Source: Armatimonadota bacterium
Lineage (GTDB): Bacteria; Armatimonadota; Hebobacteria; CAIYQO01
Direction: 5' to 3'
Assembly: GCA_029553475.1 (NCBI GenBank)
Contig: JAKPKV010000137.1
Location: forward strand, 69,976 to 133,975
DNA: 64,000 nt
This document shows, one piece after another, positions 7,012 through 63,892 of the stretch. Below the pieces are notes generated by a model that saw only the letters and a list, made by a program, of their open reading frames with translations, was not told where the DNA came from and made no database searches. Both the position numbers and the translations under genes were made by a program. Each line of letters starts with the position of its first letter. Positions within the stretch are counted from its first letter, which is position 1.

Positions 7012-7097
7012 GGTTGGAAGCCTGCTTTCGCGGCGAATGCCGCGTCTATTATAGCGCGGACGGGCGGCGCGGTCATCCTCGGTGATCGCGGGATCGT

Positions 7098-8141
7098 CTA
7101 CCGGATGAAGCCGATGCGCTTCAGCGGCAAGAAAATGACCACCGCTTTCCCCACCACGGCATCGCGCTCGAGCAGGCCCCACACGTGGCCGTCGTGGCTT
7201 TCGCGGCGGTTGTCGCCCAGCACCAGCAGATAGCCCTCCGGCACCACCAGCGCGTGGTCGTTGATGTAGGGATGCAGCGCGTTGGCGACGCCGGCGCCCA
7301 GCCGCGGGGAGAAATCGCCCATGACGGTCAGCGGAAATTCGTAATCGGGCCGGGCGGCGACATAGGGTTCGTGCAGCAGCGTGTCGTTCACGTAGACGCC
7401 GTCATACGTGATGCGCACGCGGTCGCCGGGGGTGCCGACCACGCGCTTGACGTAGTCCGTCGGCTGTTTCGGGTTGTAGCGCTGGCCGTTCAATTCCAGC
7501 GCCTTGCGCGGGGCGTGGAAGACCACCACGTCGCCCACGCGCGGCTCGCGCAGGCGGTAGGTGAACTTCGTCGCCAGCACCTTATCGCCGATCTGCAGCG
7601 TCGGGATCATGCTGCCGGTGGGGATGTAGAACGCCTGGAGCAGGAAGGGCCGGATGAGGAAAAAGACCAGCACGACCGCGATGATGGCGGAATCGAGCAG
7701 CTCATGCCAGAGGCGAAATTCGCCGCGCGACCCGTCCTCGCCGCGCGCGTCGGCGGGGGCGTCCGCCTGGTCGGGGGCGCTCTCGGCCGGCACAGCACTC
7801 GCGGGTTCCGCGTCCTCGGCCAGCAGCGTCTCATCCACGTGCCGGGGCACCTCCGCGACTTCGGCGGGATCGCGCGGCGGCGCGAAGCGTTCCGCCATGG
7901 CCGGCGCCGGCGGCCCGGCGGGCACGGCGTCAGCGGCGGCATCGGGCGCGCCGGGCGGGGAGGGCGCCTCTTCGCGTTCGGCGGGGTCGTCGGGCGCCAC
8001 TGCCAGGTCATCGCCGGCGGCGGGGGGCGCGGCTGGCGCGGCGGCGAGGCGTTCAATCACGAACGATGCCAGCCGCAATCCCAGCAGGATTGCCAGCAGC
8101 GCCCAGGGAAAGCCCGGATCGTCGAAATTGATCATCGTCAC
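7098..8141 (-). CDS. lepB: signal peptidase I paralog with acidic Pro/Ala-rich insert
   Basis: 347 aa. GSMIPTLQIGDKVLATKF, KRVVGTPGD and GDNRRESHDGHVWG boxes. About 110 aa of low-complexity A/P/D/E sequence between TM1 and TM2. Confidence 0.85.
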   Translation of the reverse strand: MTMINFDDPGFPWALLAILLGLRLASFVIERLAAAPAAPPAAGDDLAVAPDDPAEREEAPSPPGAPDAAADAVPAGPPAPAMAERFAPPRDPAEVAEVPRHVDETLLAEDAEPASAVPAESAPDQADAPADARGEDGSRGEFRLWHELLDSAIIAVVLVFFLIRPFLLQAFYIPTGSMIPTLQIGDKVLATKFTYRLREPRVGDVVVFHAPRKALELNGQRYNPKQPTDYVKRVVGTPGDRVRITYDGVYVNDTLLHEPYVAARPDYEFPLTVMGDFSPRLGAGVANALHPYINDHALVVPEGYLLVLGDNRRESHDGHVWGLLERDAVVGKAVVIFLPLKRIGFIR

Positions 8142-14284: not shown

Positions 14285-14374
14285 CGCGGATCACGGTTTC
14301 CGCGCCCCCTGCCGGCGGGACGCAACGGATGAGTATACCAGCGCGGTCCGCGCGATGTCAAAGAAAAACCCGAC

Positions 14375-14476
14375 GCCCTCACCCCCCATCCCCCTCTCCC
14401 TGAGGAGAGGGGGGCCGGAAATTCATCACGTAAAACACCCCCTCTCCTCCGGGAGAGGGGGCCGGGGGTGAGGGCG
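14375..14476. repeat. R4 twin-hairpin repeat (CCCTCTCC..GGAGAGGG type) nested in an outer GCCCTCACCCC/GGGGTGAGGGC stem
   Basis: CCCCTCTCCCTGAGGAGAGGGG (14391-14412) and CCCCCTCTCCTCCGGGAGAGGGGG (14438-14461), between rplL and ffh. A similar twin hairpin occurs at 37262-37362. Confidence 0.7.
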
Positions 14477-14483
14477 AAGCGGC

Positions 14484-14873
14484 TTACTTCACCTCGACGG
14501 TGGCGCCACCCTCTTCGAGGGCTTTCTTCGCGGCGTCGGCGTCGTCCTTCGTCACGCCTTCCTTCACCGCCTTCGGCGCGCCTTCCACCAGGTCTTTCGC
14601 TTCCTTCAGCCCGAGGCCGGTCAGCTCGCGGACGACCTTGATGACGTTGATCTTCTTCGCGGCGTCGAAGCCGGTGAGGATCACGTCGAAGGTGGTCTTC
14701 TCTTCTTCTTTTTCCGCTTCGGGAGCGGGACCGGCGGCGGCGGCCGGGGCGGCCACGGCGGCGGCCATCGGGGTCACGCCCCACTTGTCCTGCATCGTCT
14801 TGTAGAGGTCCACGATGTCCAGCAGGGACATCTGCTCGATGGCCTCGATGATCTGGTCTTTGGTCAATGCCAT
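14484..14873 (-). CDS. rplL: 50S ribosomal protein L7/L12
   Basis: 129 aa. [23 protein letters not shown].., Ala-rich hinge, ..[23 protein letters not shown].. Confidence 0.93.
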
Positions 14874-15746: not shown

Positions 15747-15888
15747 CCTTGGGCGGGCGCGCGTCCCCGCGAGCCGACGCCGGGGGGAAGTCTAATCCGT
15801 CGTGCGCGCCAGATAGCCTATCTCGCGCACACGACATACGATCACTTCCTCCCGGCGTCGGCTCGCGGGGACGCGCGCCCGCCCAAGG
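15747..15888. repeat. perfect 38-bp inverted repeat with 66-bp loop
   Basis: CCTTGGGCGGGCGCGCGTCCCCGCGAGCCGACGCCGGG (15747-15784) and its exact reverse complement (15851-15888). The loop holds a second hairpin GTGCGCG..CGCGCAC. Confidence 0.9.
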
Positions 15889-19975: not shown

Positions 19976-20056
19976 GGCGTGTCCCCGCGCGCCCCGCTGT
20001 CCCGCCCAGGCCCTCGGCATCCGGTATACCGCACCGCCCGCGCACAGGCCCGTACC

Positions 20057-20357
20057 GGGGCCGCGGCGTTGTACTCCGCACGAGTGACCTCACCCTTTCG
20101 TTTACCTGTAGTGGTCGTTCACGCTGTCCCGTGCTCTGTAGTCCGCGCCCTCCGCGGCGCGTGTTGGCGCATTTTTACCCCGTGCCCGATGATGGTGGTG
20201 TCGGACACGGGGGCGCATGTTGGTCACACGCGCCGCGGAGGGCGCGGACTACCCCGGACTGGTTTGCTACACAGAGTACATCGTGACGACCCGCTACACG
20301 TGCGGAGTACAACGCCGCGGCCCCAGTGTGTGCGGAGCATCAACTCCGCGACCCCAG
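20057..20357. repeat. nested palindromic repeat: R3 element (GTAGYGGNCGTYACG ends) inside GCGGAGTACAACNCCGC hairpin repeats
   Basis: Outer arms 20057-20082 / 20299-20324 (GGGGCCGCGGCGTTGTACTCCGCAC and its complement). Inner element 20108-20297 has arms GTAGTGGTCGTTCACG..CGTGCTCTGTAGTCCGCGCCCTCCGCGGCGCGTGT mirrored on the right. An extra half-copy lies at 20330-20357. Confidence 0.85.
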
Positions 20358-27108: not shown

Positions 27109-28851
27109 ATGCTCGCTCGCCTCGGTGTCCTTGCCACGCTGGCCGCGCTCTATATCGTGGGGCAGTCCCTTGCCGCCGCGCACGCCGCCGACCCCGACGC
27201 CGCCGCCGTCACCTGGACGATGGCCGGCCTGATGGTGGTCACTTTCCTGGCGCTGGTGGCGCTGATGTATACGAAGGTGCTGCCCGCGCTGCTGGCGCTG
27301 CCCATCCTCGCGGTGGCGCTGGCGAGCATCGCCGGGATGAAGTGGGACGTGCTCTTCACGAAAGTGATCGCGGACGGCACCACCCGCCTCTCCGGCGCCA
27401 TCATCGCCGCCATCCTCGGCGCGGTACTCGCCCAAGTGGTGGAGAAGACGGGCATCGCGCAGACGGCCATCAAGAAGACCGCGGAGCTGGGCGGCGACAA
27501 GCCGATGGTGCTCGCCGTGCTGCTCACCCTGGTCATCGCGCTGCTCTTCACCACCCTGGGCGGACTGGGCGCGGTGATCATGGTCGCCACCATCGCCATC
27601 CCCATCCTGCTGTCGCTGGGCCTGCGCCCGGTGTATGTGGGGTGTCTCTTCCTGCTCGCCCTCAGCCTGGGCGGCGTCTTCAACCTGGCGAACTGGCAGC
27701 TCTACAAGGACGTGCTCGGCCTCGACAACGCCGCCATCGGCCGCTTCGCCTATCCCTTCGCCGGCGCGATGCTGCTGGCCACCGCCGCCTTCATGGTCAT
27801 CGAGGGCACGCGCCTGGGCAAAAACCGCTTCAAAGCCACTGTCACCGAAACCGAAGACGCCCCGCGGCACACCTTCGTCCCCTGGTACGCCCTGCTCACC
27901 CCGGTGATCCCGCTGCTGCCGGTGCTGTTCTTCACGCTGTTGCCGAAATTCACCGCCAGGCCGGCGGAGATCGTCTACAAACCGATGCCGGGCGTCACGG
28001 TGAGTTCGGTGACCCAACGCGCATATGATCATGTCCGGCGGGAAAAGGAGCGCGCGCTGGCGCTGCCGATTTCGCCATTGACGCCGGATGTCCCGAGACC
28101 GCTCGCGGTCGGCGAAACCTACGTCCTCATGGCGATGCCTGATTCCTTCGAAGGTATTGAAAAGGCGGAAGGCATGACCATCACCCCCAAGCCATGGACG
28201 CGATACGAGATTTCTTCTACCTATGACTTGGCGACGAAGACCATCAAACTCCAATCGAAGGAGAGTTCGACAGCGTATGACTTCCCGATTGCGCTGGCCC
28301 TCCTCCTCGGCATCCTCTACGGCGCCATCACCACCTGGCGGCGCGGGCAGAGCACGGTGCAGTTGCTCACCAAAGCGTCCTTCGATGGCGTGGCGGCGGT
28401 GGGGCCGGCGGTGGTGCTGATGATCGGCATCGGCATGGTCTTTATGGCAACCAAGGAATCTCCCGAAGTCAATGGCATTATCGGGCCGGCCATCGCGAAA
28501 ATCGTGCCATTGGGCCAGACACCTGCCGCGTTCCTCCACTACGTGCTGCTTTTCGGCGTGCTCACCCCGCTGGCGCTGTATCGCGGCCCGCTGAATACCT
28601 GGGGCATGGGCGCAGGCTTGCTCGGTTTAATGCTGAAAGCCGGGATGCCCGCCGGCGCGGTGATGAGCGCCTTCATGTCCGTCGGCATGGTGCAGGGCGT
28701 CTGCGACCCGACGAATACGCACAACGTGTGGATCGCCAACTACACCAACACCGACGTGCAGGAGATCCTCAAGCGCACGCTGCCGTACATGTGGGCGCTG
28801 GCGTTCGTCGGCCTGCTCATCGCCGGGGCGATGTTTTACCTTGTCAAATAA
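27109..28851 (+). CDS. ion-transporter-superfamily permease (GntP/CitMHS-like) with a large central hydrophilic insertion
   Basis: ATG at 27109 preceded by AGGAGG. More than 10 hydrophobic helices. About 150 aa of soluble segment (TARPAEIVYKPMPG..QSKESSTAYD) in the middle. The substrate cannot be assigned. Confidence 0.65.
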   Translation: MLARLGVLATLAALYIVGQSLAAAHAADPDAAAVTWTMAGLMVVTFLALVALMYTKVLPALLALPILAVALASIAGMKWDVLFTKVIADGTTRLSGAIIAAILGAVLAQVVEKTGIAQTAIKKTAELGGDKPMVLAVLLTLVIALLFTTLGGLGAVIMVATIAIPILLSLGLRPVYVGCLFLLALSLGGVFNLANWQLYKDVLGLDNAAIGRFAYPFAGAMLLATAAFMVIEGTRLGKNRFKATVTETEDAPRHTFVPWYALLTPVIPLLPVLFFTLLPKFTARPAEIVYKPMPGVTVSSVTQRAYDHVRREKERALALPISPLTPDVPRPLAVGETYVLMAMPDSFEGIEKAEGMTITPKPWTRYEISSTYDLATKTIKLQSKESSTAYDFPIALALLLGILYGAITTWRRGQSTVQLLTKASFDGVAAVGPAVVLMIGIGMVFMATKESPEVNGIIGPAIAKIVPLGQTPAAFLHYVLLFGVLTPLALYRGPLNTWGMGAGLLGLMLKAGMPAGAVMSAFMSVGMVQGVCDPTNTHNVWIANYTNTDVQEILKRTLPYMWALAFVGLLIAGAMFYLVK

Positions 28852-28852
28852 C

Positions 28853-29059
28853 GTCCCGAAGGGACGGTCAGCCGTTAGCCACGGGTGGAGCGACAGCGGA
28901 ACCCGTGGAACACATTCGGCAAGACAAATCGAGCCCCGACGGGGCGACAGCAACGATGCTCTGCCGCCCCGTTGGGGCTTTTCCCATTTTCGGACACGGT
29001 TCCCACGGGTTGCGCTGTCGCTCCACCCGTGGCTAACGGCTCCTGCCCCGTTGGGGCAG
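28853..29059. repeat. composite palindrome made of two inverted R1 modules
   Basis: Reverse R1 copy at 28853-28909 (GTCCCGAAGGGAC..GTTAGCCACGGGTGGAGCGACAGCGGAACCCGTGG) and forward copy at 29002-29059, with GAGCCCCGACGGGGC / GCCCCGTTGGGGC hairpins between them. Confidence 0.85.
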
Positions 29060-29161
29060 TTTTTTCCCGACACAACCTCCCCTCCCGGCAGGGAATTCGC
29101 CCCGCCATCCCGAACCTCCCCTTTCGGCGCCGCATTTCGCAGACTCTGGCGCCGGGAGTAG

Positions 29162-33826: not shown

Positions 33827-34282
33827 ATGACCGATACCATCACCATCCTGCCGATGACGGCGGACCATATCCCGCAAGTGTATGCGCTGGAGCGGGTGTG
33901 CTTCACCGCGCCGTGGGCGCTCTCCGCGTACCTGAGCGAGCTGCGCAACCCGTCGGCGTATTACCTGGTGGCGCTGCGGGATCATCACCTGCTGGGCTAC
34001 GGCGGCATGTGGGTGGTGGAGACGAACGCGCACGTGGTGACGCTGGCGGTGCGGCCGGAGTGCCGCCGCCAGGGATTGGGGCGCAGGCTGATGGCGGAGT
34101 TGCTGGCGGAAGCCCGCCGCCGCGGCGCGGACGAGGTGACGCTGGAGGTGCGCGCCGGCAACGCCCCCGCGCAGGGGCTCTACGCCGCGCTGGGCTTTCA
34201 GGCCGTCGCCCGCCGCCGCGGCTATTACCCCGACAACAACGAGGACGCGCTGGTGATGCGGCTGGACCTGCGCCGCGCGTGA
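33827..34282 (+). CDS. rimI: ribosomal-protein-alanine N-acetyltransferase RimI
   Basis: 151 aa GNAT. ..VCFTAPWALSAYLSEL.., VRPECRRQGLGRRLM, LEVRAGNAPAQGLYAALGF. Confidence 0.85.
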   Translation: MTDTITILPMTADHIPQVYALERVCFTAPWALSAYLSELRNPSAYYLVALRDHHLLGYGGMWVVETNAHVVTLAVRPECRRQGLGRRLMAELLAEARRRGADEVTLEVRAGNAPAQGLYAALGFQAVARRRGYYPDNNEDALVMRLDLRRA

Positions 34283-34287
34283 ACGAC

Positions 34288-34315
34288 GACGCCCGGGGCC
34301 GGTGCCCCGGGCGTC
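34288..34315. terminator. bidirectional hairpin terminator between rimI and pseudopilin operon 1
   Basis: GACGCCCGGGGCC-GG-TGCCCCGGGCGTC. Paralogous hairpins at 37565 and 40371. Confidence 0.6.
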
Positions 34316-34386
34316 GGTTATCGCGATAGGCGGAATCGTTATTCCACTCCGTGCAGCCGTTGCCCGGCAGCGGCGCCGCTGACCGG

Positions 34387-35613
<1,227 letters not shown>

Positions 35614-35668: not shown

Positions 35669-36952
35669 TCAGTTGTCGAACAGCACCATGCTCAACGCGC
35701 CCGCGCCGCAATACACCCCGGTTCCGGCCGTGGCGCGGATGCGGACGGTGCCCGGGCCCCGCACGCAGAATCCCGCATAGTACGCATTGAACGTTGATCG
35801 CACGCCGTCAGTCCCGCCGGGCAAGGTGATGGCCGGGGTCACTTTTTTGACGACCCCGCCCGTGTCCGCGACGTCGAAGACCAGCGGGGAGCCGCCGCAC
35901 ACCGGCAGCGCATACAGCGTCACCACGTGCAGCGCGCTGTCGGCGAGGGCGACGTTCACGCTGACGGCACGGCACATATTGCGCGGGTGAGGGCCGCTCG
36001 CGGGATTGTCAGCGGTGAAATAGAGGCCGGCTTTGGAGGACAGACCGTTCGGCCCCTGCGCGACCTGCGTGCGCTGATCAGCAACCGCCATGTTTTCCGG
36101 CATGGCGGTGAAGGGGGCGGTAAACTCCCGCACCGCGGACGAAAAATGGCCTTGATCCAGGGTAAACCGGAACGAGAGGCCGCTGGCCCAGGCGGGGAGC
36201 TGCGTTTTGATGTCCGCCGTGACCGGCGTGCGCCCGGCGGTCTCCCCGGTGTAAATCCAGTAGCCTTGCTCGCCGTAGTTGGAGAGGTCAACGGTGCCCG
36301 CCGCGGTGGTCGGGAACGCGAGTTGGGGACCCACCACCACGTCCCACAGGCGGAGCGGCGCGCGCTTGCCCAGCTCGGGCGGATTGAGATACAGGTCATG
36401 ACGCTTGAGCGCCGCCGTCACATCGTCCTTTTGCAGCGAGATATAGACGGCATGTCCGTCCACGGCGGATACCAGAAATCCCTCGTTATGCCGGGCGTCA
36501 ATGTCTTCATTGCCCCGCACCAGCGTGTAACTGGCGAGTGAATCCTTGTGCCGTTTCAGATCCGCGGTGAGCACGGTCTGCTCCGGATACGTGATGTCGC
36601 CCAACGCCGTGTCGAACAGGAACCAGTTGAATCCGTATTCCGGACGACCGCTGTTGCCCATGCCTTTCGTGCCTGACAACGACGGACAGTCATAGATGTT
36701 CGACTCGTTATAGGCGCCGAGCACCGTCGGCCAGGGTATGTCGCCGGTGTTGACGGGAAAGATCTCGCTGTGATCCTGCACGAACATGCTGACGGCAATG
36801 GCCTGCTGCCGAACGTTGTTCAGGCATTGGGACTGTTGGGCCTTCTCGCGGGCTTTCGCGAAGACCGGGAAGAGGATGGCGGCCAGAATCGCGATGATCG
36901 CGATGACCACCAGGAGTTCAATGAGGGTGAACCCTCGTCTCGCGGAGACCAT
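35669..36952 (-). CDS. prepilin-type H-X9-DG family protein (operon 1, promoter-proximal gene)
   Basis: ATG at 36952 after [55 protein letters not shown]. Confidence 0.88.
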
Positions 36953-37093
36953 GTCAATAACCTCCTTTGACAAATTGGGTTATGATGCATGGAAATGCAC
37001 GGCAGAACGCCCGGCACCCGTTGACGCCACAGCATGCCCCGGTGCCTCTTTCGGTGCCTCTTTGGCCGGCCACAGGCTCCAGGCTCTCGGCCC

Positions 37094-37118
37094 TTCCGAG
37101 AAGCGCGCATTTTCGGAA
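37094..37118. repeat. recombination-site-like inverted repeat A (9-7-9)
   Basis: TTCCGAGAA-GCGCGCA-TTTTCGGAA. The extended match to site B covers 37093-37124 (29 of 32 positions). Confidence 0.85.
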
Positions 37119-37224
37119 GTTAGTAGGCGTAAATAATCATGATGTATGGCGCTCCGTCACGCGCGGGAGCGCCTCCGCGGGGCGTGGCGGCGCGGCAATA
37201 GTCGCGAAAGTAGAGGGGAACGGG

Positions 37225-37398
37225 CAACAGTTCAGTCCTGTCAGCATGTCGCCGATTGATGGCAAACCTAACCCCCCGCCCCCCTTCCCTGAGAGGGAAG
37301 GGGGAGTGATGGGTGTGCAGCTCCGGTGCTCCCCTCCCCGCTTAGGGGAGAGGTGGGCGGGCAGACGCCACATCACGCTGACAAGACGGAACGGTTAC
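37225..37398. mobile_element. MITE-like 174-bp insertion inside cassette 1
   Basis: Absent from the homologous position of cassette 3. Flanked by a 9-bp direct repeat GGGAACGGG (37216-37224 and 37399-37407). Imperfect terminal inverted repeats CAGTTCAGTCCTGTCAGCATG / CACGCTGACAAGACGGAACGG. Contains an R4-type twin hairpin. Confidence 0.65.
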
Positions 37399-37413
37399 GG
37401 GAACGGGGTGCGC

Positions 37414-37443
37414 TTGACAAAACAGACCCATGATGGGTAGACT
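37414..37443 (+). promoter_or_regulatory. promoter P1 inside cassette 1 (reads rightwards, away from operon 1)
   Basis: TTGACA-18 nt-TAGACT, ending 3 nt before site B. Homologous to P3 on the opposite strand. Confidence 0.6.
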
Positions 37444-37446
37444 AAC

Positions 37447-37471
37447 TTCCGAAAATGCGCGCTTTCCGGAA
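37447..37471. repeat. recombination-site-like inverted repeat B
   Basis: TTCCGAAAA-TGCGCGC-TTTCCGGAA. The spacer is the exact reverse complement of the site A spacer. Confidence 0.85.
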
Positions 37472-37491
37472 CCTTCCCCCGCACCCACTCC

Positions 37492-37563
37492 CGCCGGCGC
37501 GGCGATGACCCCGACAACAACGAAGGCGCGCTGGTGATGCGCCTCGCGTTGCGCCACGCGTGA
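37492..37563 (+). pseudogene. relic of the rimI 3' end
   Basis: Reads RRRGDDPDNNEGALVMRLALRHA*, versus genuine rimI RRRGYYPDNNEDALVMRLDLRRA* (34211-34282), followed by the same type of hairpin. Confidence 0.75.
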
Positions 37564-37564
37564 C

Positions 37565-37592
37565 GACGCCCGAGGCACGTGCCTCGGGCGTC
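37565..37592. terminator. hairpin terminator (paralog of 34288)
   Basis: GACGCCCGAGGCACGTGCCTCGGGCGTC. Confidence 0.6.
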
Positions 37593-37619
37593 GCTGTCTC
37601 GGCAGGCAAACGAGGGGGG

Positions 37620-38717
37620 CTATTCCACCCAGAAGGCCATCATCTCCGTACAGCCGTTGCCCTGGGCGCCGGTGTCGAACGGTTTGACGGGATCCACTTC
37701 GAATTTGACGCCTTTCACATCGTAGAACTCGGTCTCCGCGGCGCGAATGTCCCAGACGATCTTCGCGCCGCTCTCAACCGGCGCGGTGTCGCGCAGATTG
37801 CGCGGGCCGGATTTCGTGCCGAATTCCACCCAGGTGCTCGTGCGGGCGTCCAGCACGTAGACCTGGCAGGGGCCCACGCTGACGGTATCTTTTTCGCCGC
37901 CGCGGATTTTTATATAGTTGACGCGCGCCAGCGTCGGCAGAGAGAATTCGCACCAGAACGAAGAATTTCCGTCCCAGCGGCAGCGCGGGGTGGTGTAGCT
38001 CACGTATTCGATGCCATCCGAGATGTGCTGGATCGGGTTCCACGAGGTCAGCGGCTGGCTGCTCACCTTCGGCACGATCCCTTTCAGCAGGCTGGAGGCC
38101 GCGCTGGTATTGGAGGTGGCGGTCGCCTCGGTCACCGGCGAGTTCGCCGCGCCGCTGGAGGCCAGGGATACTCCCTTCAGCGTCATGCCGTCGGCGACGG
38201 TCTGCGGGCTTTTCACCACGATGTTGTCGGCGTGGCCATCCACCGCCACGAAGTTGAAGCTGTTGTTGTGACGGGGGTCAATATCCGTCGTCTGGCTGAT
38301 GGCGCAGGCGCCGGTGAAGGCGCTTTTCTTCAGGTCGGCGCACAGCACCGCGGAGGTGGGGGACAGCACCTCGCCCATGACTATGGGCGCGTACAGGTTC
38401 TTGTTGAAGCCGTATTCCGGCGCGGTGTTGGTGCCGGTGCCGGTGAACGATGGGCAGTCGTAGATGGTCGGCCCGTTGTACGGCGTCAGGTAGGCGCCCC
38501 AGGCGCTGCCGCCCGGATCGGGGAAGAAGGTCTGGTTGTTGTCCTGCACGTACATCTGCACGGCGACGGCGATTTGCCGCAGGTTGTTCAGGCAGGAGTT
38601 CTGCCGGGCTTTCTCCCGCGCGCGGGCGAACACCGGGAAGAGGATCGCCGCCAGGATGGCAATGATCGCGATCACCACCAGCAGCTCGATTAACGTAAAA
38701 CCGCGTTTCCGCATCAT
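37620..38717 (-). CDS. prepilin-type H-X9-DG family protein with discoidin/galactose-binding-like C-terminal domain (operon 2, distal gene)
   Basis: ATG at 38717 after [57 protein letters not shown]-terminus [32 protein letters not shown].. is paralogous to the next gene. Confidence 0.88.
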
Positions 38718-38753
38718 GAGTTCTCTCCTTTTCTCCACTGTCACGCGCATGGC

Positions 38754-39860
38754 TTACAGGACGAAGAAGGCCATCATCTCCGTGCCGCCGTTCCCCTGCA
38801 CATTCGTGTCGTAACCCGCCACCGGGTCCACGACGATCTTGACGCCGGACACGTCATAGTAGTTGGGCGTCATCGCGCGGATGTCCCAGAGCAGCGTGGA
38901 GCCGCTGGTGCCGCTGGGGTTCAGGTTGGTGGCGGCCGTCTTCGCGCCGATGTTCACCCATTCCCCGGTCTCTTTGACCTGCAAGGAGAGCTGGCACGGG
39001 CCGATGGAGATGGTGTCTTTCTCGCCGCCGCGGAATTTCAGATAGTTCACGCGCAGGCCGTACGGCAGCTCCCAGACCACGGTGAAGCTGCTGTCGCGGG
39101 ACCAGCGGCAGCGCGGGGTGGTGTAATTGATATAGTCCACGCCATCCGAGAGGTATTGAATCGGATTCCACGACGCCAGCGGCGCGGGGGTCGGTGTGCC
39201 GACCAGCCCTTTCAGCAGGTTGTTGATGGCCATGGCCTGGCCTATCGCGATGGGCTCCTCCGTGTTAATGATGGCATCCGGGCCGTAGAGCAGGTATTTG
39301 CGCGCGGGGAGCGCCTGCTTGATCGTCTGCCCGGCCAGGTTCTCGGTGGCGACGTGGCCGTCCAGGCAAGCCAGCAGCGCGTTGCCGCCGTGGCGGGGGT
39401 CCATGTGCTCGTATTTGGTGAAGGCGTAGTTGTCTTTGAACTGCGTCTTGGCGAGGTCCGTCGCCACGATGTACGTTTCCGGGGGCGTCAGGTCGCCGAG
39501 GGCGTAGCCGAAGAGCCAGCCATTAAAACCATACTCCGGGGCGGTGTTGGTGCCTTTGCCCTGCAGCGAGGGACAGTCATAAATGCTCGGCTCGTTGTAG
39601 GGGGCGAGATAGGCGGACCAGGGCGACGTCTTCGAATCCGGGAAGAGCATTTCGCCGTGATCCTGGAGATACATGCTGACCGCGATGCCGATCTGCCGCA
39701 GGTTGTTCAGGCACGACGTCTGGTTGGCTTTTTCGCGCGCCTTCGCGAAGACGGGGAAGAGGATGGCGGCTAAAATCGCGATGATCGCGATCACCACCAG
39801 GAGTTCGATGAGGGTGAAGCCCGCGCGGCGGCGGGTCCCTCTGCTCGGCAGCTGAGACAT
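38754..39860 (-). CDS. prepilin-type H-X9-DG family protein with discoidin-like C-terminal domain (operon 2, proximal gene)
   Basis: ATG at 39860 after [77 protein letters not shown].. Confidence 0.88.
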
Positions 39861-39907
39861 ACCCTACACTCCTTTCAAAAAGAACGTAGTATGGCCAACG
39901 CGATAGG

Positions 39908-39932
39908 TTCCGAAAATCGTATGTTTTCGGAA
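39908..39932. repeat. recombination-site-like inverted repeat C
   Basis: TTCCGAAAA-TCGTATG-TTTTCGGAA. Confidence 0.85.
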
Positions 39933-40053
39933 ACCAGCGGGCGAAAATGTTGCTGCCGGGCGCTCTGTGACGCCTGAATGGGGGGTATTTTGCCTCCGAG
40001 GGCTGCTGTCCGGGGCGCTACCGGGGGCATTGGCGGGCAAAGGCTCCCGATAC

Positions 40054-40083
40054 TTGACAAGAAAGGTCCTTGTCGCATATATT
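40054..40083 (+). promoter_or_regulatory. promoter P2 inside cassette 2
   Basis: TTGACA-18 nt-TATATT, ending 4 nt before site D. Confidence 0.6.
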
Positions 40084-40087
40084 TAAG

Positions 40088-40112
40088 TTCCGAAAACATA
40101 CGATTCCCGGAA
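40088..40112. repeat. recombination-site-like inverted repeat D
   Basis: TTCCGAAAA-CATACGA-TTCCCGGAA. The spacer is the exact reverse complement of the site C spacer. Confidence 0.85.
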
Positions 40113-40370
40113 TTGCCCGTGCAGGCGCGACAGCGGCACGACGCCGACATAGCATACCGGTGTATCACACCACGACCGCTGCCGTACTCGGACCTAGACA
40201 CCGTTGATGTCCGCGCGCGGCCTCCCGCCGCCCCCAAAGCCCTGCGCCCCCGCCCCGTGCCGGGCAGCCCGCCCGCATCCGGCAGGGGCATCCCATCGCG
40301 TGTCCCGCGCTGTTGACGTTGCCCTGCTTCCCGTGGACGCGTGCAGCGGTGAACCGGGGGCGACGTACGC

Positions 40371-40402
40371 GACGCGCCCGGTGCCAGGGCACCGGGCGCG
40401 TC
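40371..40402. terminator. hairpin terminator (paralog of 34288 and 37565)
   Basis: GACGCGCCCGGTGCCAGGGCACCGGGCGCGTC, 25 nt beyond the stop of the 40427 gene. Confidence 0.6.
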
Positions 40403-40426
40403 TGTCCAGGGGGCCAGCGGCCCAAT

Positions 40427-41584
40427 CTAGGGTTCGAAGACCAGGTAGGCGGCGCCCCTGTTGCAGCCGGTCGGGCCACTGAGCTGGATGCTCGTGGCTT
40501 TCCCCGCCTCGCAGGGTACCAGGAGGAAGCCGACGGAGGCTTTATCCGTGGAATTGGCCGAGGCTTTGATGACCTGGTTCAGGGTGACGGTGTTGGTCCC
40601 GGTGGTCACGCTCTGGATGGTGAAGGACGCGTTCGCATTGGTGTCAGCGGAGGTGAAGACCACGCCGACCTTGCGGATGCCGCTGGCATTCGGCACGAAG
40701 GTCACTTTCGCGGTGGTGACCCGGCCATCGTAGTCGCCGAATGGCGGCTGGATGTTCGCGCCGTTCCAGTTGAGCCAGGAGTTGCCGTTCCAACTGGACA
40801 GGGAGCCGCTCACCAGCGTCCAGGTGCCGTTGTCGCTCCACCAGCCCGGGTTGCCGGTGGGCATGAGCAGCATGCTGCTGGCGCCCCCGGTGCCGGCGGC
40901 GACCAGGGAGGCGATCTTCGAGATGCCGACGCCGCCCAGGAGGCCCTGCACGCTGCCGTCCGAGCGCTTCAGGTTCTCCGCCAGCAGCACGAACGGCACG
41001 CCGGCCACTTTCGAGCCTTTCGCCAGCGAGTAGGCGAAGGTGGCGGCGGTGATGTTGTCCTTGGTGAGGTAGCCGACGTGGCCGTCCACGTAGCCGAAGA
41101 CGGCGCCGTTGTTGTGGCGGCCCGTATCGCACTGCGCGAGCGCTTTCGCCAGGTCGCCGGTGTCGCCGTCATCCACGTAGGGCTTGCCGGTGGCCGGGCT
41201 CTTCAGCTCGGCGAGCATCACCGCCTCCACCGCGGAGCCGACGTCGTTGAGCGCCGCGCCCGAGAGGAAGGAGCCGGCGACGAAGAAGTAGTCCGGCTGC
41301 ACTGACTTGCCCATGAAGCTGGTGGTGGGACAGTCGAAGATCTTGTTCTCCGCGCCGTAGTTGGCGGCAAGCTGGCTGTTCCAGCCGGTGGCCGACGGCA
41401 GCTTGGAGTCGTGGTCCTGCGCGTACATGGTCATGCCGATGCAGAGCTGCCGGACGTTGTTCATGCAGGTATTCTGCCGGGCCTTCTCACGGGCTTTGGC
41501 GAATACCGGGAAGAGGATCGCCGCCAGGATCGCGATGATCGCGATGACGACCAGGAGCTCGATCAATGTAAAGCCTTTTCGCAT
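40427..41584 (-). CDS. prepilin-type H-X9-DG family protein (operon 3, distal gene)
   Basis: ATG at 41584 after [55 protein letters not shown]. Confidence 0.88.
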
Positions 41585-41613
41585 GGGATGATACCTCCTC
41601 TAGGTAATCGGCC

Positions 41614-42765
41614 TTATTCCTCGAAGGCCAGGCTCATGCCGCTCCAGCCGGGGATGGCGCTGTAATCGAGAGTGATCTCGATGGTCTTGCCGGCTTCGAC
41701 GGGGATGGCCAGGAATCCGGCCGCCACCTTGCCGCCGCTGGACTGGAGGGATTTGTTGAGCGTATACGTGTCGGCGCCGATCTTGATGGTCGAAAGCCGC
41801 GTGATGCCCACGCCCAGGCTGTCCCAGCAGCTATACATCACCACCAGCTTCTTCGTGACGGGCGTGGTCAGGCTGGCGTGCGGGACGATCGTCACCGTCG
41901 CGATGCCTGTGCGGCCGTCGCCGTCGCCGCAGATCGGCACGCGGTTCGCCCCGTTCCAGCGCACGCCGTTCCAGTCGTACACGGTATTCGTGCCGACGAC
42001 CTGGGTGAACGTCGGCATCGCCGACCACCAGGTGGGCGTGCCGGTCGGCTCCACGGCGGTCGCTTTGTTGTACAGCAGTTTCGTCACGCCCAGCGCCTTG
42101 CAGGTGGTGTAGAAGGTCTGCGCGGTGTCGCGGGCGGGCGTCATGCCGTCGGCGATCTGCCCCATCCACGTCGGCTCGGTGACGACGACGTTGGGATTCA
42201 TGCTGGGGGCGAAGAAGCCGGCGTTGATCTCCTCGCGCTTCACCCAGGCCACGTGGCCGTCCAGGAAGGCGAAGACCGCGCCGCCGTTATGGCGGGCGTC
42301 CGCGGTGGCGACGGCGGTCAGCGGATTCTGCGTGCCGTTGTCGTTGATGTACGGCGGGTTTTCCCCGGGCCCGGACTGGTCGCCGACGATGGGCGCGAGC
42401 TCCGGATACTTCACGTCGCCCAGCGCCATGCTGTCCAGGAAGGAGCCGGCCACGTAGAAGTAGTCCGGCTGGGTGTCGGTGCCCACGTGGGTGATGGAGG
42501 GGCAATCCCAGACTTTGCCGGTCATTCCGTAGTGCTGCGCCAGCACGCCGTACCAGGTTTTCGCCGGCGGCAGCCTCTCCTCGTTGTCCTGCACGTACAT
42601 GCTCACGGCAATGGCAATCTGCCGCTGGTTGTTCATGCAGGTGTTCTGGTTGGCCTTCTCGCGGGCTTTCGCGAAGACGGGGAACAAGATGGAGGCCAGG
42701 ATGGCGATAATCGCGATCACCACCAGGAGTTCGATGAGGGTGAACCCTCGTTTCGGGGAGACCAT
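41614..42765 (-). CDS. prepilin-type H-X9-DG family protein (operon 3, proximal gene)
   Basis: ATG at 42765 after [55 protein letters not shown]. Confidence 0.88.
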   Translation of the reverse strand: MVSPKRGFTLIELLVVIAIIAILASILFPVFAKAREKANQNTCMNNQRQIAIAVSMYVQDNEERLPPAKTWYGVLAQHYGMTGKVWDCPSITHVGTDTQPDYFYVAGSFLDSMALGDVKYPELAPIVGDQSGPGENPPYINDNGTQNPLTAVATADARHNGGAVFAFLDGHVAWVKREEINAGFFAPSMNPNVVVTEPTWMGQIADGMTPARDTAQTFYTTCKALGVTKLLYNKATAVEPTGTPTWWSAMPTFTQVVGTNTVYDWNGVRWNGANRVPICGDGDGRTGIATVTIVPHASLTTPVTKKLVVMYSCWDSLGVGITRLSTIKIGADTYTLNKSLQSSGGKVAAGFLAIPVEAGKTIEITLDYSAIPGWSGMSLAFEE

Positions 42766-42892: not shown

Positions 42893-42917
42893 TTCCGAGA
42901 ATCCCGTATTTCCGGAA
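42893..42917. repeat. recombination-site-like inverted repeat E
   Basis: TTCCGAGAA-TCCCGTA-TTTCCGGAA. Confidence 0.85.
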
Positions 42918-42920
42918 ATT

Positions 42921-42949
42921 AATCTACGCATCACGGCCTATTTTGTCAA
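42921..42949 (-). promoter_or_regulatory. promoter P3 inside cassette 3 (drives operon 3)
   Basis: Minus strand TTGACA-17 nt-TAGATT, ending 3 nt before site E. Confidence 0.65.
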
Positions 42950-43063
42950 GTAATCCCACGCGTTCCCCCGCCACTTCCGCGACTATTTCAGCGTCTCCAC
43001 TCCCACGGGGGCGCTCCCGCGCGCGTGACGGAGCGCCACGCCTCACGATGTACGCCCGCTGAC

Positions 43064-43088
43064 TTCCGGAAATACGGGATTTCCGGAA
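43064..43088. repeat. recombination-site-like inverted repeat F
   Basis: TTCCGGAAA-TACGGGA-TTTCCGGAA. The spacer is the exact reverse complement of the site E spacer. Confidence 0.85.
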
Positions 43089-43410
43089 CCTTTCCCCGCG
43101 CCCATCCCGCCGGCGGATGAGATGAGGAAGGGCTGTGGTCGCCTCGCGTTGATGCCGGCAAGGCAGCAAATGCTACAGCCCAGGGGTCACCACCCTCGTG
43201 CCCCGTCACATGGCATTTGCCGGCGTAGCGGCAGACGCATCGCGGGTGGCTTCCGGCGCGTCCTGCCGCTTCAAGGCCAGCATGAACTCCTCGTCGCTGC
43301 AGCCCAACTCCGTGTGCGCCAGCGAGTCCGGGCTCGCGTTGGCGGCCATCGTGGGGGGGGATCCATCCCCAGCGCCCGGTCGGCCCCGGCCTTGTCGGGG
43401 GAGACCCCGT

Positions 43411-43426
43411 TGCTAAAGCGCTTCAA
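43411..43426. promoter_or_regulatory. LacI-type operator candidate O1, overlapping a TTGCTA-18-TATACT promoter
   Basis: TGCTAAAGCGCTTCAA (AAAGCGCTT core palindrome). TATACT at 43434-43439. Confidence 0.45.
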
Positions 43427-43479
43427 ACTCGCGTATACTGAATGCTTGGAAGCATCCGTGCCGGCGGAGAATCGAGTGG

Positions 43480-43493
43480 TTAAAGCGCTTTAA
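43480..43493. promoter_or_regulatory. LacI-type operator candidate O2
   Basis: Perfect 14-bp palindrome TTAAAGCGCTTTAA, about 95 nt upstream of the LacI-family gene. Confidence 0.5.
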
Positions 43494-43587
43494 TCAGTAT
43501 TGATAAAATTATAACACGGACAGATAGCTCTGTCAATGCGACGGCGGCTCTATTACCGAAAAAAGCTGGCGGGGAAAGGAGGCGACG

Positions 43588-49529: not shown

Positions 49530-49558
49530 GGTCCCTCTCCTTTCATCGTAGTCATTTT

Positions 49559-49699
49559 GGAGGGCGAGACTCCGTCGAGCCGCGTGCGTAGGGACCGTGA
49601 TTGCATTCGCATATACCTTTGAGCGGGTACTACGCGCCTAGGTATGCAGAGAGTCGCTCCCGGTTCCTACGCACGCGGCTCGACGGAGTCTCGCCCTCC
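49559..49699. repeat. R5: perfect 34-bp inverted repeat with 73-bp loop
   Basis: GGAGGGCGAGACTCCGTCGAGCCGCGTGCGTAGG (49559-49592) and its exact reverse complement (49666-49699). Confidence 0.9.
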
Positions 49700-49704
49700 A
49701 AAAA

Positions 49705-51253: not shown

Positions 51254-52315
51254 TCACCTCAGCACGAGCACGATGAAGCGGATCTTCTGGATCTCGAAGT
51301 ACTGCTGGGTGTCATCGTAGCAGGTGAGGGGGGTGATCCGGACATATCGCGCCTGCGCCGGGCTGCCGAATTGGTAGTCCTCGCCTCGGTAGTTCGTCAC
51401 GAACGTCGCCGGAGCGGTGGGGAGGGGCACGGCCAGGACATTCGGCGTGATGGTCACCGGCGTGAAGCTGGTGCCGTTGAGCGACACCGCCACGTTCGCC
51501 GTGCGCACGGCGTATTTGGCCGAGTTGGCCGCGTTCGTGTTCCATAAATGGAACGCGGACACGTAATACGCCTGCCCCAGGTCGTAAATCAGATGGACGT
51601 CTGTTTTCGTGCTGCTGCACCAGGGATAATGGATTTGATCATAGCCATACGTGTGCCCCGGCCAGATGGCGGGCACCTCCGCGCCGGTCACGATATCGGC
51701 GGACAGGCCGGTGGCGTCAAGCGTGTGAGAGGCGGGATAGAGCGCGCTATAGGGCTTGGACGCCGCCTCATCCACCCCGACGGGCTTCACCACCATCCGC
51801 TGCGCCCCGGCGGGGACGTCGGGCCCTTTATACGTCCAGGAGGCGCTCTTGTCGGTGGTTTCCACATGCCCATCCACGAAGGCCGCGATGGTCTTTTTAC
51901 TGTGGCGGGTGGCCGCCGTGGCGAGGTGCTGGCCGTCGGCGGTGCAGAAGGTGGCGGTGGGATCGGACACATCGCCGAGCGCGGTGCCATCCAGCACATT
52001 GTTATACACGTAGTCGGGGTTGGTGGCGGCGCCTTTCTTCGAGGTGGTCGGGCAGTCCCACACCTTGCCCGGGGTCTCCGCCGCCTGCGTCCAGGTGGCC
52101 GACCGGGGCAGGGTTTCATCGTAGTCCTGCGCGTACAGGGTGATCGCGGTGACGAGCTGGCGCTGATTGTGCATGCAGGTGGTCTGCCGCGCCTTCTCAC
52201 GGGCGTTCGCAAACACCGGGAAGAGGATGGCCGCCAGGATGGCGATGATCGCGATGACGACGAGCAGCTCGATCAGGGTGAACCCGGAATGCGGCCGCTG
52301 ATGATGATGAGACAT
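51254..52315 (-). CDS. prepilin-type H-X9-DG family protein with F5/8-type-C (discoidin)-like C-terminal domain (solitary copy)
   Basis: ATG at 52315 after [55 protein letters not shown]-terminus ..[26 protein letters not shown]... No flanking inverted sites; a TATAAT lies at 52347-52352 (minus). Confidence 0.88.
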
Positions 52316-52425
52316 CAGACGCTCCTTTCGCAAACTGATGCATGAAATTATAAGCGGCAGGCACGGCAGCGTCGTTCTCTGATACGGACTTAGTATTTCG
52401 CGATCCGGTCACGGGGGAGAATTGG

Positions 52426-60620: not shown

Positions 60621-61142
60621 CAATCCCTACTCCCTGTTTTCCCCAATCCCTAATTGTAGTGGGCCGTCACGCTACAGATAGGAGATAGGAGTACGAGGTA
60701 GAGGATATGATGTCATCCCGAAGGGATCACCCCCGCCGGCCACGGGCGGCGCATCAGCGGACCCCGCGGGCAGCACCCGGTCGCTCCCCACCCCCATGTC
60801 CCGAAGCTGTCGCCCCTGCGGGGCTGTGGATGTTTTGCGGGGCCGGGGTCCACGGGTTCCGCTGACGCTCCACCCGTGGCTAACGGCTTCGGTCCCTTCG
60901 GGACATGGGGATGGGGGGCGACCGGGCGCTATCCGGGGGGGCCGCTGGCGCGCCGCCCGCGTCGGCGCCGGCCGATTCCCGTGGGACGCCCCCGGTCAAG
61001 ATGGCGAAGCGAGGCGCAACGTGACGAGCCGCTACAATTAGGGATTAGGGGTGAGGGATTGGGGCTTGGGGCGCGCGCTACGGTTTGCATGGCACGGCGC
61101 ATCGTGACGACCCGCTACACCTAATCCCCGACCCCTAACCCC
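60621..61142. repeat. large composite of nested repeats (TAGGGAT-type arms > R3 ends > R1 module) plus an R3 half-copy
   Basis: CCCCAATCCCTAATT|GTAGTGGGCCGTCACG (60641-60671) pairs with CGTGACGAGCCGCTAC|AATTAGGGATTAGGGG (61020-61051). Inside, CCCCACCCCCATGTCCCGAAG (60787-60807) pairs with CTTCGGGACATGGGGATGGGG (60897-60917) around an R1 module at 60849-60905. An extra CGTGACGACCCGCTAC sits at 61103-61118. Confidence 0.8.
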
Positions 61143-63651: not shown

Positions 63652-63726
63652 CGGTCGTTCCTGTGATGAAAGCGGCGTTCGCGACGGTATTGTACCACAA
63701 ACCCGCCCGCGTGGCACTAGCAGCCC

Positions 63727-63892
63727 GCGGATACAGTCGTTATTCGGATTGCGCCGAGATTTTGGCGCCAGGCAAGGCGCAGATATAGTGTGTTACATAG
63801 AATGTAAACGCTATATCTGCAACGCGGCATGGCGGCAAAAGATTAAACAAGGCGAGTAACGACTGTATCCGCGGGCTGCTAGCGCGTCAGCA
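63727..63892. repeat. perfect 26-bp inverted repeat flanking a 114-bp AT-richer segment
   Basis: CTAGCAGCCCGCGGATACAGTCGTTA (63727-63752) and its exact reverse complement (63867-63892). The interior holds a second palindrome GCAGATATAG..CTATATCTGC and a minus-strand TTGCAG-17-TATGTA. Confidence 0.9.

Follow-up and report, generated by a model that had tools for sequence, protein, structure and literature searches.

The DNA analyzed here, referred to as the window, is a 64-kb stretch from an Armatimonadota bacterium (GCA_029553475.1, contig JAKPKV010000137.1, positions 69,976–133,975 of the plus strand). It contains three two-gene operons on the minus strand that encode pseudopilin-like proteins. 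The first gene of operon 1 (35669–36952; 427 aa) specifies a protein with a prepilin-type N-terminus and an H-X9-DG motif; the product of the second gene (34387–35613; 408 aa) has a prepilin-type N-terminus, a DUF1559 domain, and an H-X9-DG motif that scored above the TIGR04294 cut-off. Operon 2 (37620–39860) and operon 3 (40427–42765) each comprise two H-X9-DG pseudopilin-like genes (38754–39860 and 37620–38717 for operon 2; 41614–42765 and 40427–41584 for operon 3). The TIGR02532 prepilin N-terminal domain was above cut-off in all six proteins, and all six contain the H-X9-DG string; DUF1559 was found in five, and TIGR04294 was above cut-off in two. An earlier reading of this locus, made from the sequence only, had assigned both operon 1 genes to the H-X9-DG type, and the TIGR02532 matches and H-X9-DG strings bear this out. 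Prepilin-like proteins of this DUF1559 H-X9-DG type have undergone a very large expansion in Planctomycetota, Verrucomicrobiota, and Armatimonadota. A seventh H-X9-DG prepilin-like gene in the window (51257–52408), which carries an F5/8 type C domain and adjoins a fucosidase gene, has no inverton upstream.

Each of the three operons is preceded by a pair of inverted sites located 47–141 nt upstream of its start codon. Upstream of operon 1, two inverted repeat arms of 31 nt (37094–37124 and 37441–37471) match at 29 of 31 positions (94% complementary) and are separated by 316 nt. The 22-nt core of this repeat occurs exactly twice in the window, compared with 0.00 copies expected (none in 100 shuffles), so that the inverton proposed in the sequence-only reading is built on a real inverted repeat. 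Within the repeat, site A (37094–37118), which is proximal to operon 1, reads TTCCGAGAA GCGCGCA TTTTCGGAA, corresponding to outer arm, 7-nt spacer, and inner arm. Site B (37447–37471) reads TTCCGAAAA TGCGCGC TTTCCGGAA, and its spacer is the exact reverse complement of the site A spacer. The invertible segment consists of the 328 nt between the core sites (37119–37446), into which the perfect repeat runs a further 6 nt from each core (GTTAGT/ACTAAC). We refer to this arrangement as inverton 1.

The inverton 1 cassette is approximately 180 nt longer than its paralogues because of inserted REP-like G+C-rich palindromes at approximately 37273–37350, which the shorter cassettes do not have. These palindromes read CCCCCTTCCCT..AGGGAAGGGGG, and similar ones are present near 14383–14468 (region 14361–14489). 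Rfam and tRNA scans of the window gave no matches. The window also contains six other long intergenic inverted repeats with arms of 27–91 nt (15747–15888, 49555–49703, 20054–20327, 60641–61050, 63714–63885, and 28846–29065); neither the TTCCG...CGGAA site described below nor an Rfam match was found in these six.

A promoter-like sequence, TTGACA-18-TAGACT (37414–37443, plus strand), matches the consensus at 10 of 12 positions and lies inside inverton 1, where 3 nt separate the end of its −10 hexamer from the 25-nt core of site B (first position 37447). It faces right, toward the 3′ end of operon 2 and away from the minus-strand operon 1 (ATG at 36952); the consensus scan thus confirmed the promoter, its spacing, and its direction as originally described. 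We predict from this match to the consensus that the promoter is active. The fixed leader of operon 1 extends over 141 nt from site A to the ATG (36953–37093, minus strand), in agreement with the length of about 140 nt given previously. No promoter was detected by the consensus scan on the minus strand between site A and the ribosome binding site, and to the extent of that scan the claim that operon 1 lacks an alternative promoter there holds.

Just downstream of the operon 2 stop codon lies a duplicated rimI 3′ end with a hairpin (37490–37593, plus strand). This segment is 82% identical over 108 nt (E 3e-21) to the 3′ end of rimI and its hairpin at 34209–34316, and by tblastn it retains 75% identity across the last 24 residues of RimI. 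The hairpin is a perfect 15+15 palindrome (37564–37593) that folds on either strand, with a G+C-rich stem of 11 bp on the plus strand and 14 bp on the minus strand (z −5.3 on the minus strand). Both the relic and the strong hairpin beyond it had been noted from the sequence, and both stood. In the assembled orientation the promoter would fire rightward into the relic and the hairpin, and operon 1 would lack a dedicated promoter (OFF). On the minus strand, however, no U-tract follows the hairpin, so that transcription of operon 2 could continue into operon 1 in either orientation of the cassette, the OFF state included. A hairpin within the cassette was considered as an orientation-dependent terminator and rejected; the stem at 37150–37175 and its paralogue in inverton 3 folded no better than shuffled sequences (z −1.0 and +0.1). 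We conclude that inverton 1 is a real promoter inverton and that it is in the OFF state as assembled.

Site pairs and their spacers

The core site is 25 nt long and consists of TTCCGNNAA, a 7-nt asymmetric spacer, and TTNNCGGAA. All sites have this 9-7-9 layout, and the two 9-nt arms of each site are palindromic to each other (TTCCGRRAA). Six copies are present in the window, where 0.01 would be expected, and they form three pairs. The left and right sites begin at 37094 and 37447 for inverton 1 (spacers GCGCGCA and TGCGCGC), at 39908 and 40088 for inverton 2 (TCGTATG and CATACGA), and at 42893 and 43064 for inverton 3 (TCCCGTA and TACGGGA). Because the spacers are exact reverse complements within each pair, the paired sites are in inverted orientation. 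All 14 fixed arm positions are intact in both inverton 1 sites, and their spacers match at 7 of 7 positions.

Inverton 2, also called cassette a below, spans 39908–40112 (sites 39908–39932 and 40088–40112) and contains a plus-strand promoter, TTGACA-18-TATATT (40054–40083), that is OFF for operon 2. Inverton 3 spans 42893–43088 (sites 42893–42917 and 43064–43088); its promoter, TTGACA-17-TAGATT (42949–42921), is on the minus strand and ON for operon 3. In the OFF state, inverton 2 has its promoter directed at the 3′ end of operon 3, and no terminator-like hairpin was found across 40113–40427; convergent transcription between these neighboring modules is possible. Upstream of inverton 3 and facing it is a fixed minus-strand promoter (43508–43536) with a 12 of 12 match to the consensus, followed by LacI-type palindromes of the form TTAAAGCGCTTTAA. 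It lies in the divergent promoter region of a LacI-family gene (43400–43540), in which a weaker promoter (43410–43439, plus strand) faces lacI and two such palindromes are found at approximately 43413–43428 and 43478–43493. The fixed promoter may constitute a second, non-invertible, sugar-responsive input to the array.

Promoter-like sequences matching the consensus at 10 or more of 12 positions are rare in the window, with only 10 on both strands of the whole 64 kb. Three of them sit 3–4 nt inside the three invertons, and four precede ffh, rplJ, ftsZ, and the lacI-divergent region. Since there are so few, and some lie ahead of genes such as ffh, rplJ, and ftsZ, we conclude that the consensus is meaningful in this organism and that the placement of promoters within the invertons is not due to chance.

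The same arrangement was found in ten invertons from four Armatimonadota lineages, each with an inverted pair of 25-nt sites and a sigma-70-like promoter. The promoters match the consensus at 10–11 of 12 positions in all pairs, and the −10 hexamer ends 2–4 nt from one inner arm. In all 11 listed pairs, which represent these 10 distinct invertons and eight different spacers, the two 7-nt spacers are reverse-complementary; a further pair, at locus L147, also has matching spacers and brings the total to nine different spacers. Within the organism, spacers belonging to different switches differ from one another by 3 or more of 7 nt in whichever orientation they are compared, and none equals its own reverse complement. 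On comparative grounds, we consider the perfect co-variation within pairs the strongest argument that partner sites have to interact via their spacers, as a tyrosine recombinase requires.

The arms showed a further regularity. The inner arms of a pair and 2–6 nt of the adjoining interior were always identical in all ten invertons, even where they departed from the consensus, and the outer arms of a pair differed at one to three positions (in the window and at six loci from other contigs). Such concerted evolution of the inner arms is not accounted for if strands are exchanged within the spacer only.

A candidate recombinase

The window itself has no recombinase gene. When 185,579 species genomes were scanned for paired sites (two sites 140–170 nt apart), a single match was obtained, in a related Armatimonadota MAG that DnaG (65% identity) likewise places with the closest relatives; a paired-site scan at a spacing of 171–200 nt found none. 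In the matched MAG the site pair is directly upstream of a Phage_integrase gene, and a promoter lies 2 nt from the right site.

A generic scan of the species genomes for single sites gave at least 119 matches, most of them by chance. When the MAG recombinase was used in tblastn searches, a homologue (30–45% identity) was present on the same locus in 15 of the 119 listed single-site matches, all in other phyla. Pelagibacter, Veillonella, and Terriglobia were among the sources of these loci, whose sites have the form TTCCGATAA-N7-TTATCGGAA; the single site is upstream of the recombinase gene and, at most of the 15 loci, within approximately 100 nt of it. On the strength of these 15 loci we conclude that the site motif is the cognate site of a widespread recombinase family, which has thousands of members. 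In Pelagibacter and other phyla (seven loci, among others), the single site upstream of the recombinase gene is a nearly perfect palindrome, and the spacer TTAATGG is common to several unrelated contigs; possible roles for these single sites are dimer resolution or service to a mobile element.

A protein of 315 aa, P0007, was found in the same sample series as the window organism. The 57-kb contig that encodes it has a tetranucleotide correlation of r = 0.98 to the window and contains a paralogous pseudopilin gene with its own inverton (spacers TCGAACA/TGTTCGA), which is ON. P0007 is itself preceded by an inverton (positions 3350–3581 of locus L146, JGI 3300010344 contig Ga0116243_10001137), whose sites read GTCCGGGAA GTGAAGG TTTTCGGAA and TTCCGAAAA CCTTCAC TTTTCGGAA. 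In four of four assemblies the promoter of this inverton is directed at the P0007 gene, which is intact, and on its far side is a two-gene operon encoding Big_2/PKD surface proteins. A site pair was present at the 5′ end of the recombinase gene at each of five loci. The self-inverton is shared by P0007 orthologues from three further Armatimonadota lineages, in one of which it adjoins a prepilin-type gene.

P0007 matched PF00589 (1.7e-14). Its best relative of solved structure is Cre (E 4e-10 over residues 34–300), the XerC-like match being only 4e-5, and the R, K, H-x-x-R, H, and Y positions of P0007 and Cre are aligned. P0007 fell below the NCBIfam cut-offs for the Xer models that it matched. 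A recombinase of the related P0015 subfamily (49% identity) was rejected as a candidate because no sites of the 25-nt type were found near it. Co-occurrence, composition, and paralogy suggest that P0007 belongs to the same genome as the window, and the sequence evidence makes it the likely recombinase acting on inverton 1.

Cassette orientation and alternative explanations

Comparison of paralogous cassettes provided evidence for inversion. Between invertons 1 and 3, the left flanks align directly (76.5% over 362 nt), as do the right flanks (86% over 58 nt), and the interiors align in inverted orientation (76.5% over 132 nt). The window was also compared with the other assemblies, all of which have four operons where the window has three. 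In them, operons 3 and 2 are separated by an additional operon X (411 + 403 aa) and by a LacI fragment of 150 aa, and the cassette upstream of operon 2 in those assemblies, cassette b, has the spacers TCACACG/CGTGTGA and is ON in four of four assemblies. Cassettes a and b have interiors in inverted orientation (92% over 199 nt) and right flanks that are 100% identical (272 bp); their spacers differ at 3 of 7 positions, with the matching change in both sites of each pair. Thus, in the same organism, inverton 3, cassette b, and the pseudopilin inverton on the P0007 contig are ON, and inverton 1 and cassette a are OFF. Because the interiors are inverted between colinear flanks in paralogous cassettes, we conclude that inversion at such sites has happened.

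The 272-bp identical segment, which comprises the right arm of the site, the leader, and the 5′ coding region, is a direct repeat at the junction between the two arrangements (39661–39932 in the window; 3808–4079 and 7021–7292 in locus L120). Either a real deletion or an assembly collapse at this repeat explains the shorter array of the window. In one assembly (ERZ795049), contig NODE_13533 is a perfect palindrome centred between the operon 1 genes and is most likely a low-coverage assembler artefact. Three sets of loci whose differing gene calls had suggested possible inversions (L142 versus L143, L147 versus L148, and L149–L151) were rejected as such because their DNA is identical.

For inverton 1 itself, the ON junction was defined as CCCATGATGGGTAGACTAAC + site A + GGGCCGAGAGCCTG and the OFF junction as GATTATTTACGCCTACTAAC + TTCCGAAAATGCGCGCTTCTCGGAA + GGGCCGAGAGCCTG. 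By exact-protein look-up the inverton 1 locus was found in JGI 3300010344 (133-kb contig), 3300009767, and 3300009715 and in ENA ERZ795049, ERZ795058, and ERZ27257448. Seven public assemblies contain inverton 1; its sequence is the same in each and its orientation is OFF, and the ON junction was absent from these seven and from all other sequences compared. The seven assemblies are probably derived from a few related bioreactor data sets, and hence are not independent, and consensus assemblies hide minority orientations. A scan of metagenome collections for either inverton 1 junction returned two contigs only, neither of them new and each in the OFF orientation. When five of the six window pseudopilins were looked up as exact proteins, the same few assemblies were recovered with no alternative orientation, and no loci related to the operon 1 protein were found in the species genomes. 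Among assemblies, therefore, both orientations of inverton 1 were not seen at the same locus, and orientation differs only among paralogous cassettes. As no assembly has inverton 1 ON, present-day switching is what we infer from the cassettes and sites described above.

Because only one orientation has ever been seen, an alternative that must be weighed is that inverton 1 is a fossil or is locked, with operon 1 permanently silent or transcribed by read-through only. The uniform OFF state in every assembly would be expected of a locked switch, as might the unusual length of the cassette; the insertion of approximately 180 nt of REP-like G+C-rich palindromes, or a rarely expressed recombinase, could possibly have caused the locking. 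However, a decayed switch would not be expected to have the 14 fixed arm positions intact in both sites and spacers matching at 7 of 7 positions, and the candidate recombinase gene is likewise intact, with its own promoter aimed at it in four of four assemblies. A segment of 328 nt is not known to be a barrier for Cre-type enzymes. We consider a locked inverton unlikely and an inverton that still switches the better account of these features.

We regard two further explanations as very improbable. In one, which involves no DNA inversion, the TTCCG...CGGAA palindromes are operators at which a dimeric transcription factor brackets and regulates a fixed rightward promoter; the product might, for example, be an RNA that is antisense to operon 2 or otherwise regulates it. 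Palindromic arms are indeed typical of operators, and the promoter does face the 3′ end of operon 2. Operators nevertheless leave unexplained why the asymmetric spacers co-vary as exact reverse complements in 11 of 11 pairs, the inverted cassette interiors between colinear flanks, and the tight link across phyla between the motif and a Cre-like recombinase gene.

In the other, the cassette is a MITE-like non-autonomous mobile element with terminal inverted repeats and an outward promoter that was inserted upstream of the operons. The element is indeed short, has inverted repeats at its ends, and occurs in several related copies; yet no target-site duplication is present at inverton 1 (GGCCC on one side and CCTTC on the other), no transposase is associated with it, and the copies differ specifically in the spacer while their arms are conserved. 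Moreover, the copies are at the same position in paralogous modules with homologous flanks, which indicates duplication of the module rather than insertion.

A serine invertase of the Hin/Gin/Mpi type was rejected because no resolvase-family domain was found among the window ORFs scanned and because the site shape does not fit, such enzymes acting on 26-bp sites with a 2-bp crossover core and not requiring identity of a full 7-nt spacer within pairs.

Proposed mechanism and relation to known systems

We propose that inverton 1 is a phase-variation switch in which an outward sigma-70-type promoter between inverted lox-like sites is flipped by a Cre-like recombinase, and we assign this reading a probability of roughly 0.8. 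A Cre-like tyrosine recombinase encoded elsewhere would bind the arms, exchange strands within the identical spacers, and flip the cassette. After inversion the −10 hexamer would sit 3 nt from site A, and transcripts would start inside the site, near 37115; the ON transcript would have a leader of approximately 160 nt followed by the two H-X9-DG pseudopilin genes. Inversion is probably still ongoing. The same enzyme probably also operates five or more additional switches in this organism, namely cassettes a and b, inverton 3, the switch of the pseudopilin/Laminin_G gene near the recombinase gene, and that of the recombinase's own promoter. Since the spacers are switch-specific (at least 3 of 7 nt apart), each switch should flip independently and should not recombine with its neighbors; engineered lox variants suggest by analogy that recombination would be confined to the two sites of one switch. 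This specificity matters in a tandem array because cross-recombination would delete or invert whole operons.

A broader proposal, for which we see about an even chance, is that six or more orthogonal promoter switches are under the control of a single, domesticated Cre-like recombinase, whose own promoter is among them, and that the pair-specific spacers have diversified and co-evolved such that tandem switches flip independently and without operon deletion, as a natural multiplexed "FLEx-like" system. If this is true, the H-X9-DG pseudopilin operons would undergo combinatorial phase variation. The promoter of the recombinase would toggle between its own gene and the Big_2/PKD operon: when flipped, it would face that operon and leave P0007 promoterless, which could lock the state of every switch, and hence the current combination, in the cell. 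Phase-variable and mutually independent expression, if it occurs, would argue that the H-X9-DG proteins form structures that are secreted or exposed at the surface and on which selection by phage, grazers, or substrates fluctuates.

The elements that are new here are the host phylum, tandem H-X9-DG pseudopilin operons as the targets, lox-like sites with switch-specific spacers, and a recombinase whose own promoter is invertible. No mention of Armatimonadota or of pilin was found in the 2024 cross-phylum inverton survey, and no description was found in the other literature searched. Our finding broadens the range of invertons to bacteria that are not host-associated.

Tyrosine recombinases are well known to drive promoter invertons, including those of the fimS type with FimB and FimE of Escherichia coli and those of the Tsr enzymes of Bacteroides. 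In Clostridioides difficile, one tyrosine recombinase, RecV, acts on several switches with different repeats (PMC7446863, PMC9286219). The inverton 1 system resembles these in having a short invertible promoter segment beside genes for surface structures, presumably flipped by a tyrosine recombinase, and it resembles RecV in that one enzyme appears to serve several switches with different repeats. It differs from the fimS, RecV, and Tsr systems in several respects: the candidate enzyme is Cre-like by sequence and below the cut-offs of the Xer models it matched; the sites are full lox-like arm-spacer-arm units in place of simple short repeats; the bacterium is an uncultured member of the Armatimonadota; H-X9-DG pseudopilin operons serve as the targets; and the promoter of the recombinase is itself invertible.

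The global invertase Mpi of Bacteroides fragilis is a serine recombinase that acts on a short shared repeat. As with Mpi, one trans-acting enzyme would control many distant promoter invertons for surface structures; in contrast to Mpi, the sites have an anatomy that suits a tyrosine enzyme, and no gene for a serine recombinase turned up here. The Rci/sfx shufflon of IncI plasmids shuffles coding segments of one pilV gene by means of a single shared spacer. Common to both systems are a tyrosine recombinase (in our case the candidate P0007), a 7-bp spacer, pilus-related targets, and asymmetric conservation of the arms, the inner arms being more conserved than the outer arms here. Unlike Rci/sfx, the switches described here flip promoters, and each has its own spacer.

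Close parallels in site structure are with Cre/loxP, SCre/SloxP, and VCre/VloxP, in which a site with two inverted arms and an asymmetric spacer adjoins the recombinase gene. All the corresponding features were found here: inverted arms with an asymmetric spacer in the 6–8 bp range, spacers shared between partners (co-variation), and a site near the recombinase gene. Heterospecific spacers are used in lox2272/FLEx engineering designs. Nature may have arrived at the same solution, since the pair-specific spacers described here resemble engineered heterospecific lox variants, and the sites offer a naturally orthogonal set for one small Cre-like enzyme. SloxM1, a site of the Cre relative SCre, reads CTCGTGTCCGATA ACTGTAAT TATCGGACACGAG (PMC3082901), and the half-site core TCCGATA of the wider recombinase family matches it. 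Compared with SloxP, the variable center here is 7 nt between 9-nt conserved arms, one nt longer in the same register. Unlike Cre/loxP and its relatives, which have a single plasmid or phage site, the sites described here are natural inverted chromosomal pairs arranged as gene switches, with several orthogonal pairs in one genome.
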